Origin: Escherichia coli 042
GTDB taxonomy: Bacteria > Pseudomonadota > Gammaproteobacteria > Enterobacterales > Enterobacteriaceae
Strand: one strand, 5' to 3'
DNA: 64,000 nt
NCBI RefSeq assembly: GCF_000027125.1
Contig: NC_017627.1
Shown here: positions 45,801-48,800 of the stretch, piece after piece
How positions within the stretch are numbered: the first letter of the stretch is position 1
Layout of the letters: each line of letters begins with the position of its first letter
Position numbers: made by a program

Positions 45801-48800
45801 TAAACAACAGACTGGGCTGAATTCCATGCAAACGCGCCACGTGGGACACGGCCATGCCAGGCTCCATAGTCTGTTGAATAATTGCGATTTTTTTCTGAGG
45901 TGTTTTACGTTTACGCACCTCTTTTCCTAACAAAACGCCAGCCATCTCAAAATTAGAACTAGTGGTGTTAGACATATATCCAAGCCCATCTCTTATTTTA
46001 AGAGACATCTACTGTCTGGTATTTCAGGGGGTCAGCTCACAAAATAAAGGTATCTTCCAGCACGGAGCAATAGACGTAACAATCACTTAAAAAAACGGAG
46101 ATAAGCCCTTTCCCATAATCTCTCAATTCCGGATTTTTCTGGTGCAGCACCTATTTAAAAATCTACATTGTGTCATTATTCTATCCTTCCGATATCTTAT
46201 CATGTTATAAATTCCAGAAAAGAGAACATTGTATTGGGGGGATTGATGAAGGCTGGAAAGAATTTTCATTCCTTGTCGAAACAAGCAGCTTCTGCAGAGA
46301 AGAATATGGATCTTGCACTTGCTTTTGAGCTCTGGAAACTGGCCTCTTTATTCTGTAAGAAAATAGAGAATATAGAGTGGTGCATGAATAGAGCAATGTT
46401 TTGCGAGGCTTATATAAGCAGAAATCAGGACGGTTAGAAAGTGTAGTCGTCAACAAAAACTGTCTAGACTGGCCTAATCTCTTATTTTAAGATACATCTA
46501 CTGTCTGGTATTTCAGGGGACCAGTCTAAATAGTTGCGCGGAATAGTAGATCACTTTGAGGGAACTCAGCCCGGATTGTGCGATCTGAATCAATCGCCAA
46601 AAAGAAAAAATCACCAACCGGACTGAGCGATGCCGATCATAGCACCAATCCCCAGAACCGAACGACGCCTGATGCAGAAAACTATCCATAAAACAAAGGA
46701 CAAAAACCACGCCCGGCGGTTCACCGCCATGCTGATGCTGCATCGTGGTTACGCCGTCAGTTATGTTGCCAAAACGCTCTGCTGTGCCCGTTCATCGATT
46801 GGTCGCTGGTAAGCGGCTCGTCAGAACCGTATTGATATTTACTGAGAGCTCAGATCAACTTTCCAGGGCAACAGATCGCGTACCCGGTTTGCCGGCCAGT
46901 CCTGGATATGTTCAATGACGTAACGCAGCCACTTTTCTGGCTCCACATTGTTCAGACGGCATGTGCCGATCAGCGAGTACAACACCGCCGCATGTTCACC
47001 ACCGCTGTCGGAACCCGCGAACATCCAGTTTTTCCGGCCTACGGCCACTCCCCGTAAGGCGTTCTCTGCGATGTTGTTGTCGATTTCCACCCAGCCATTA
47101 CTGCAGTACACGTTCAGTGCATCCCACTGTTTCAGCAGGTATGCGAACGCTTTTGCCGTATCTGAGTGACGCGACAGTGTTTTCATCTGTTGCTGTATCC
47201 AGTCATACAGTGACTGCATCAGTGGCGCGGCTCTGGCTTTTCTTGCCGCCAGACGCTGTTCTGCTGAACAGCCCCGGACCTCTGCCTCGATGGCATACAG
47301 TTCACCGATACGCTGCAGGGCTTCCGTGGTGATGTAGGTGGGCGCTCTTGCATGCACATCGTGGATTTTTCTCCGGGCATTAGCCATACACGCGGCTTCC
47401 GTTATTCTGCCGGATTCGTATAACGCCCGGTAACCACCGTAAGCATCGGCCTGAAGCACACCGCTGTAACCGGCCAGGTGATTTTGTGGATGGATACCTT
47501 TCCGGTCCGGACTGTACGCGAACCAGACCGCCGGGGGCATCTGTGAACCGGCGTTACGGTCATCACGGACGTAGACCCACAGCCGGGCTGTCCGGGTTTT
47601 ACCGCTGCCCGGCTCCTGGACCGGGACGGGGATATCATCAGCATGGACTTTACCGGGCATCAGCACATACTGGCGCAGGACGTCATACAGCGGCTCCAGC
47701 AGTTCAGCAACAGCACCTGTCCAGCGCCCCAGTGTGGCACGGCTCAGCTCCACTCCCTGACGACGGTATATTTCTGACTGGCGGTATAACGGCAGATGGT
47801 CTGCATATTTCCCGGTGACAACATGGGCCAGAAGCCCCGCTCCGGCATAACTGCGTGCAATGGGTTTTGAAGGTACTGGTGCCTGCACGATATGGTCGCA
47901 CCGGCAACAGGCCTGTTTCGGACGTTGTGTTTCGATAACCTTAAAGGCGCTGCTGATAAGCTCCAGTTGCTCTGACACATCACATCCCAGAGAACTGAGT
48001 TCACCACCACAGGCAGGACAGCATTCCTCTTCCGGCCGGATAACCCGGGTTTCACGGGGAAGTGAGGCCGGTAACGGTTTACGGGCTGAAGACTGGCGCA
48101 GGGCGGATGGCAGTACCGGGTCATATTGCTCACCCAGCGTTTCCGCCATTTCTTCCTGAAGTGCGCTGATTCGCTCCTGTGCTTCCTGTATCTGCCGTTC
48201 GGTTTTTGCACGAAGTTTTTCTGAGCTTTTACCGAACTGCATACGTTGCAGTTTCGCAACCAGCGCCTTCAGTCGGTTGATTTCGGAAGCATAAGCCGCC
48301 ACCCGCTGTGAGAGCAGGCGGTTGTATTTCGCCATCTGTCGGATGGTGTCCTGTTGCGTCTGCAACAGTGCCCGCAGGCGGGCGTTCTCATGAGCAAGTG
48401 AGGTGTCCATATCCTCACTTTACAACGGGTTATATGCGGATTCCAGCGCGTTCCGTTCGTTTCGGGTGCTTCCAGTTGATACCTTCAAGAAGCATGGATA
48501 ACTGAGCCGGAGTAAGGTGCACCTTGCCGTCACGGGTGACTGGCCAGACGAAGCGGCCCCGCTCCAGGCGTTTGGTGAAGAGGCACAGTCCGTCACTGTC
48601 AGCCCACAACACTTTTATCTGGTCACCCCGGCGTCCGCGGAAGATGAACAGGTGTCCGGAGAACGGGTCATCCTTCAGGACGTTCTGAACTTTTGATGCC
48701 AGGCCGTTAAAGCCATTTCGCATATCGGTGATACCTGCAACCAGCCAGATACGCGAACCTGCAGGGAGAGATATCATCAGTGGCTGCTCCCTTTTATTTC

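Follow-up and report, generated by a model that had tools for sequence, protein, structure and literature searches.

The open reading frame (ORF) at positions 46246-46437 (plus strand) of the 64,000-nt stretch of enteroaggregative Escherichia coli (EAEC) 042 DNA analyzed here (contig NC_017627.1; hereafter the window) was identified, with a probability of about 97%, as orf60 or aar, the gene of the AggR-activated regulator on virulence plasmid pAA2 of EAEC 042. It starts with ATG, comprises 63 codons followed by TAG and translates to MKAGKNFHSLSKQAASAEKNMDLALAFELWKLASLFCKKIENIEWCMNRAMFCEAYISRNQDG. The identification is carried by exact identity with published material: the 257 nt at 46208-46464 correspond base-for-base to the aar sequence given for EAEC 042 (Abdelwahab et al., 2020, Fig. 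S8A), and the encoded proteins are identical. Moreover, both promoter entries for aar in Table 1 of Yasir et al. (2019) were found without mismatch, at 46026-46100 and 46157-46231, as were, on the minus strand, the published promoters of aap (43123-43197), aggR (41905-41979) and EC042_pAA061. The orf60 mutant of Santiago et al. (2014) carries a deletion of FN554767.1 46,236-46,438, and positions 46,141-46,433 were cloned in the same study (PMC4038620); these coordinates published for aar on pAA2 (FN554767.1) coincide with the coordinates of the window. From the published fragments and coordinates we infer that the window represents positions 1-64000 of pAA2 of strain 042. No difference was detected between the gene described here and aar of pAA2 (FN554767.1) with regard to the 257-nt DNA, the protein, the promoter, the neighboring genes aggR and aap, or the coordinates.

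The assignment to the ANR family is in line with this identity. NCBIfam model NF033650 (ANR_neg_reg, ANR family transcriptional regulator) was matched over profile positions 1-54 of 54 with 65.7 bits (E = 2.3e-18), the curated cutoff being 32 bits. The initial annotation, which was made from the sequence alone, had read a 63-codon ORF at this place and regarded it as a candidate aar or ANR-family regulator because of its size. The ORF is indeed present, as seen from its translation and from the NF033650 score, and its naming turned out to be firmer than 'candidate', the gene being identical to the archetypal aar of 042; alignment to Aar and to the ANR family, with 257 nt identical to published aar and a profile score above the cutoff, bore out the proposal. 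The same applies to its size: the mass computed for the 63-amino-acid product, 7233 Da, is that published for Aar (7.23 kDa), and the product falls inside the range of less than 10 kDa and 39-80 amino acids given for the ANR family (PMC4038620). A 67-amino-acid product initiated at an upstream TTG would have a mass of 7592 Da. Taken together, the NF033650 score and the synonymous-only change across alleles show that the ORF did not arise by chance.

When positions 46030-46540 were searched by megablast, the aar locus was detected in 43 plasmids and, among complete E. coli genomes, in 54. All full-length matches listed carried the annotation 'AggR-activated transcriptional regulator Aar' and were pAA-type plasmids, among them 55989p and those of the O104:H4 outbreak; the closest plasmid in the database was CP091411.1 with 99.8% identity. 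In pAA plasmids of the 55989, O104:H4 and pFORC69 type, Aar (WP_000643555.1, 66 amino acids) is identical to Aar of 042 over the first 63 residues and is extended by QKL as a result of the change of the stop codon TAG to CAG. Within the 63 codons, the 042 and 55989 types differ by synonymous changes only, compared to a divergence of about 5% in the flanks. The 55989-type alleles are identical to 042 in the AggR site, in the -10 element and in a 64-bp insertion sequence (IS) remnant downstream of aar, and the SPATE fragment upstream and the IS630-family element downstream are common to both (Table 1). By contrast, the 55989-type alleles possess a better Shine-Dalgarno sequence (GGGAGGT), which is due to a 1-nt insertion, and are longer by 11 bp upstream of the promoter; the plasmids carrying them are devoid of the ISEc48-like/IS481 insertion.

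Table 1. Coordinates of the features surrounding aar in the window, with the basis of each assignment.
Feature	Position	Strand	Basis or remark
aggR, AraC/XylS-family activator antagonized by Aar	41080-41877	-	265-amino-acid ORF; annotated aggR, 100% identity, in near-identical plasmid
aap (dispersin), AggR-regulon neighbor	42684-43034	-	116-amino-acid ORF; annotation
Decayed 5' SPATE (S6 peptidase) gene fragment	~43300-43523 and 46040-46155	+	split by IS; pFORC69 equivalent is an S6 family peptidase pseudogene (PGAP)
15-bp target duplication CAAAATAAAGGTATC of ISEc48-like insertion	43509-43523 and 46040-46054		
Defective ISEc48-like IS3-family element, TG...CA termini	43524-46039	-	94.2% identity to ISEc48
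Nested IS481-family element inside right inverted repeat of ISEc48-like IS	~43542-44731		own inverted repeats; IS481 annotation in CP056609
Second, distal AggR site ATAAAGGTATC, a candidate known from prediction only	46044-46054	+	first of the aar entries in Table 1 of Yasir et al. (2019); inside 15-bp target duplication
AggR-binding site ATTATTCTATC	46175-46185	+	consensus WWWWWWWTATC, one mismatch; Yasir et al. (2019) Table 1
aar -10 element TATAAATT, hexamer TATAAA or TAAATT	46206-46213	+	Yasir et al. (2019)
Four extra codons TTG GGG GGA TTG	46234-46245	+	in 67-amino-acid version with TTG start
Shine-Dalgarno-like G-run GGGGGGA	46237-46243	+	ends 2 nt before ATG; Shine-Dalgarno sequence placed here in published figure
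64-bp IS2-type left-end remnant, TAGACTGGCC...GGACCAGTCTA	46465-46528		inverted tips and direct repeat; starts 27 bp past aar stop
IS630-family element, 5' part, terminal repeat AATAGTTGCGCGGAATAGTAG	46529-46810	+	pFORC69 PGAP annotation; ends of three independent copies
IS66-family element truncating the IS630-family one	tnpC 46839-48410, tnpB 48430-48777	-	

The features that define the ANR family were found in the product and in its surroundings. An alignment of 14 sequences was made from Aar, the product of a second ANR-family ORF of the window and 12 homologues obtained by two protein searches, 11 of which were 34-70% identical to Aar. In this alignment A26, W30 and A33 were invariant and A14, E18, N42, W45, R49 and C53 were at least 90% conserved; these residues coincide with those reported to be necessary for AggR binding or oligomerization. 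The 18 critical residues of Aar (A14 A15, E18 K19, A26 F27, L32 A33, N42 I43, E44 W45, N48 R49, A50 M51 and F52 C53; Santiago et al., 2016, PMC4983702) all fit the ATG-based numbering of the window ORF. An AlphaFold2 model built from the 14-sequence alignment (mean pLDDT 90.5) predicts helices at residues 7-19, 23-35 and 40-62, which agrees with the three helices of Aar also reported from prediction and circular dichroism (PMC4983702). A Pfam scan of the 63-amino-acid protein matched no family, a sequence search of the PDB with Aar yielded one spurious coronin match (E = 1.7) and no relative, and comparison of the model with the PDB by Foldseek returned nothing at E ≤ 0.001, the nearest folds being generic three-helix units of MIT/TPR-like type. 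Like Aar, the other ANR members (Cnr1 and Cnr2 of enterotoxigenic E. coli (ETEC), Rnr of Citrobacter and enteropathogenic E. coli; NF033650) are smaller than 10 kDa and are predicted to form three helices, and A14, E18, A26, W30, A33, N42, W45, R49 and C53 are common to them and Aar. The same anti-activator mechanism as well as cross-complementation have been reported for ANR members (papers including PMC4038620 and PMC4983702), and their protein identity to Aar, 34-70% in the present alignment, is given as 25-100% in the papers. They differ from Aar in their partner activators (Rns/CfaD, RegA/PerA) and have no flanking DNA in common with aar; in the ETEC ANR genes the coding sequence alone is common with aar and the flanks are not. 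An ANR gene is expected near a cognate AraC/XylS-family virulence activator together with fimbrial, dispersin and Aat genes; in the case of aar, aggR lies 4.4 kb and aap 3.2 kb upstream.

Given that ANR paralogues exist, that ETEC ANR genes match aar at 69-73% DNA identity and that a second ANR-family ORF is located inside the window (50189-50398), it could be argued that the ORF at 46246-46437 is not Aar but another paralogue of the family, either Cnr-like or a housekeeping ANR protein. The probability of this is negligible: the ORF is 100% identical to published 042 aar in DNA and protein, an exact identity by which the alternative was judged already refuted, and it has the AggR-dependent promoter known from the literature and lies, as published, in the neighborhood of aap and aggR. 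Nothing was found that contradicts the identification as aar. The points that weigh against it are minor gaps, namely that the proposed identity of the window with pAA2 rests on fragments and coordinates printed in papers, that the 042 allele offers two in-frame starts, ATG and a TTG upstream of it, and that no ANR protein structure has been solved against which the predicted model could be checked.

The second ANR-family ORF of the window (50189-50398, minus strand, 70 amino acids; longest ORF 50186-50407) was placed by tblastn. Its product is 15% identical to Aar and scores 33.1 bits with NF033650, barely over the cutoff. Directly upstream of it, also on the minus strand, is finO (50530-51090), which places the ORF at the border of the F-type transfer region, and a protein identical to its product is annotated as 'ANR family transcriptional regulator' in CP091411. 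The second ANR gene of CP091411 had been expected near 51.6 kb of the window, a location discarded in favor of that given by tblastn.

The promoter elements of aar could be located in the window and are in accordance with the published analyses. The AggR site and the -10 element are separated by 22 bp (Yasir et al., 2019, PMC6392122), within the 21-23 bp expected of an AggR-dependent promoter, and neither varies among the five alleles, of three lineages, that were compared. The mutations p77C and p75C, which correspond to T46182 and T46184 in the AggR site, abolish activation, and p52C, p50C, p49C and p48C (A46207 and A46209-46211) map to the -10 element; both groups of mutations were reported to lower AggR-dependent and basal aar activity alike (PMC7781526). 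At 46150, at a distance of 25 bp from the AggR site on its upstream side, the 55989- and CP056609-type alleles contain 11 bp (GCGTTCTGGCC or GCGTTCTAGCT) that the 042-type allele lacks. The activity of the aar promoter has been found to differ between strains (Abdelwahab et al., 2020, PMC7781526). As for the distal candidate AggR site, the upstream IS insertion generated a second copy of ATAAAGGTATC on the aap side, the two copies (43513-43523 and 46044-46054) being 2.5 kb apart.

With regard to translation initiation, the initial annotation had judged the ribosome-binding site (RBS) to be acceptable. A G-run does precede the ATG, but 'acceptable' is generous for what is a poor match to the consensus; replacement of the 042 aar RBS, likewise described as a poor consensus match, raised Aar activity (Abdelwahab et al., 2020, PMC7781526). 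Two starts have been used for the 042-type allele. AMRFinderPlus starts it at TTG, with the CP091411 coordinates mapping to 46234-46434, and the distance to the start of 48 bp given by Yasir et al. (2019) implies a start at 46234 (PMC6392122). In the 55989-, pFORC69- and O104:H4-type alleles, the TTG is placed out of frame by the 1-nt insertion in the Shine-Dalgarno region, and PGAP sets the start at ATG. Judged from the alleles compared, the ATG at 46246 is the only start that is in frame in all of them, and it is also the start of the experimental numbering.

The regulatory circuit in which aar takes part has been described in detail. AggR activates aar, and Aar lowers the expression of aggR and of the AggR regulon, which constitutes negative feedback (Santiago et al., 2014, PMC4038620). 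Aar binds AggR residues 69-181, whereby AggR dimerization is disrupted and DNA binding prevented, and this binding was demonstrated by two-hybrid analysis, pull-down, surface plasmon resonance and electrophoretic mobility shift assays on the exact same protein (Santiago et al., 2016, PMC4983702). Furthermore, Aar binds H-NS-family proteins and changes their DNA binding (PMC5570504). According to these reports, AggR positioned at ATTATTCTATC, with a spacing of 22 bp to the -10 element, raises transcription of aar, which also shows substantial basal activity; the 63-amino-acid three-helix Aar binds the central linker and dimerization region of AggR and blocks its dimerization and DNA binding, so that the AggR regulon is subject to a closed loop of negative feedback. 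The individual steps are those published for this exact sequence, the contribution made here being the location of the promoter elements at the level of sequence.

Upstream of aar, the initial annotation had noted an IS2-like end at about 46030. An IS3-family element does end beside the locus, its true end being 46039 (...CAGCTCA). Compared to ISEc48, this element is about 94% identical over the full length, with TG...CA termini and a target duplication of the 15-16-bp kind, but the copy is dead: a 4-nt insertion causes a frameshift in orfA, orfB carries deletions of 15 nt and 9 nt as well as a change from W to a stop codon, and the right inverted repeat is split. An independent chromosomal copy of ISEc48 is flanked by a 16-bp target duplication (positions 276-291 and 1626-1641 of locus L004), and therefore the 15-bp duplication seen here is the normal signature of ISEc48. 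Target duplications of 15 and 16 bp are unusually long; IS3-family elements usually give rise to duplications of 3-5 bp. In 55989p and pFORC69, CAAAATAAAGGTATC is present as a single copy and the DNA across the insertion point is contiguous, without the ISEc48-like element. Since the element is absent from these plasmids and has its own target duplication, its insertion took place next to aar when the gene was already resident. A further ISEc48-like fragment is found at 42062-42391 between aggR and aap, with 96% identity to 44732-44761 and 45150-45449; thus, the AggR region was hit repeatedly by this family.

The gene fragment that was split by this insertion codes, when its two parts are joined, for MNRIYSLKYS...RDYLDLAQNKGIFQHGAIDVTIT...SIPDFSGAA, the beginning of a Pet-like autotransporter. 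It stops about 20 bp before the AggR site of aar, and the region upstream of the aar promoter therefore represents former coding sequence. In pFORC69, aar is flanked by two S6-peptidase pseudogenes, which were considered as the halves of one gene split by an insertion carrying aar; this was rejected, as they derive from different SPATE genes that have 27 nt in common at the start codon.

Downstream of aar, a 67-bp palindromic mini-element with IS2-type ends had been proposed at 46464..46530. A short element with inverted tips of IS2 type is present, best delimited as the 64 bp listed in Table 1, and it is palindromic at its tips only: TAGACTGGCC and GGACCAGTCTA are inverted repeats of 11-15 nt, the identity being 87% over 15 nt when the flanks are included. 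These tips match the left end of IS2 (TAGACTGGCCCCC). The inner 48 nt (46477-46524) repeat, in direct orientation and at 94% identity, positions 45988-46035 at the left end of the upstream IS. Compared to the ends of IS2 and ISEc48, the remnant consists of about 59 bp of left end and a 10-nt inverted tip, and it possesses no transposase, right end or target duplication. In a search with a 91-nt query, the complete 64-bp remnant was detected, as it appears, only at aar loci, in 53 of the matching genomes (944, or 994 E. coli records) and in 40 plasmids, the other matches covering the generic part of the IS left end; among the matches listed, those of full length were pAA plasmids, and the complete aar locus is found in 54 genomes. 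When the remnant was examined as a possible miniature inverted-repeat transposable element (MITE), dispersed full-length copies were not found in the matching E. coli genomes, and there was no target duplication.

The IS630-family element beyond the remnant was inserted at CTAG with duplication of TA, exactly at the tip of the remnant; its counterpart lies at positions 4516-5660 of locus L003. The possibility that the right tip CCAGTCTA is a chimera with the terminal repeat of the IS630-family element was rejected, as three independent IS630-family copies show insertion at CTAG and duplication of TA; because of this mode of insertion, the IS2-type right tip is genuine. A sub-threshold Rfam match to RNA-OUT was observed at 46559-46630 on the minus strand (24.8 bits compared to a gathering score of 41; E = 0.06). 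It is antisense to the 5' leader and the start of the IS630-family transposase gene and may be due to chance or may represent an antisense control RNA.

From the two flanking IS ends, the initial annotation had concluded that aar might have been captured or might be mobilizable as a unit. A cassette or composite element of this kind would be suggested by the position of an IS3-family left end 207 bp upstream of the ATG and of a second IS2-type end 27 bp downstream of the stop codon, by the presence of the remnant next to aar in all pAA plasmids examined and its 100% conservation in five alleles, and by the additional fragments of the same IS family between aggR and aap. However, the long IS ends flanking aar (45988-46035 and 46477-46524) are direct repeats, only the tip of 10-15 nt being inverted, and the 15-bp duplication brackets the upstream IS alone, which was inserted beside a resident aar and which has defects in both orfA and orfB and an interrupted right inverted repeat. 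Neither 46040-46528 nor the remnant alone is flanked by a target duplication. Moreover, the complete remnant was not detected at any place other than aar loci and therefore does not qualify as a dispersed MITE, and aar and the remnant are confined to pAA-type plasmids, while the upstream IS is lineage-specific. Homology between pAA lineages crosses both supposed boundaries and extends into the SPATE fragment and the IS630-family element, and the ETEC ANR genes have no flanks in common with aar. None of the features that define a composite transposon or a MITE was found, and a cassette is accordingly a very improbable explanation; the proposal of capture or mobilization as a unit is unsupported and had to be abandoned in view of the own target duplication of the upstream IS, the direct-repeat ends, the dead transposase and the lack of any alternative context of the gene.

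The conservation of the 64-bp remnant could also be explained by a function for aar, as a stem in the 3' untranslated region (UTR), a terminator or a stability element, rather than by its being neutral debris. In five alleles from three lineages no difference was found over the 64 bp, while the surrounding non-coding DNA differs by about 5%, for which the rough chance is about 0.04, and the 15-nt inverted tips are able to pair in RNA. On the other hand, the predicted fold is not exceptional (z = -1.0), as 35 of 200 shuffled sequences fold at least as well, and only three independent lineages were compared. No T-run, no terminator-like site and no Rfam match was found in the remnant. A functional remnant is therefore unlikely, and slightly less likely still is its co-option, be it as a stem in the aar 3' UTR affecting the end or the stability of the transcript, or as a surrogate end for IS2- or ISEc48-type transposases by which aar might occasionally become mobilizable.

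The aar gene of strain 042 is already known; characterized since 2014, it serves as prototype for the ANR family of anti-activators, and its identification carries little weight as a discovery, since promoter, partners and phenotype of aar have been published for the exact sequence. The practical gain is that the window could be assigned, via published fragments and coordinates, to plasmid pAA2 of EAEC 042, and that an inconsistency in annotation was brought to light between the TTG start (67 amino acids) used for the 042 allele and the conserved ATG (63 amino acids). As regards the genetic context of aar, the IS sequences around it are unrelated debris; that they frame the gene is incidental and reflects the kind of decay by which the pAA virulence region is typified, and they do not constitute a vehicle of mobilization.

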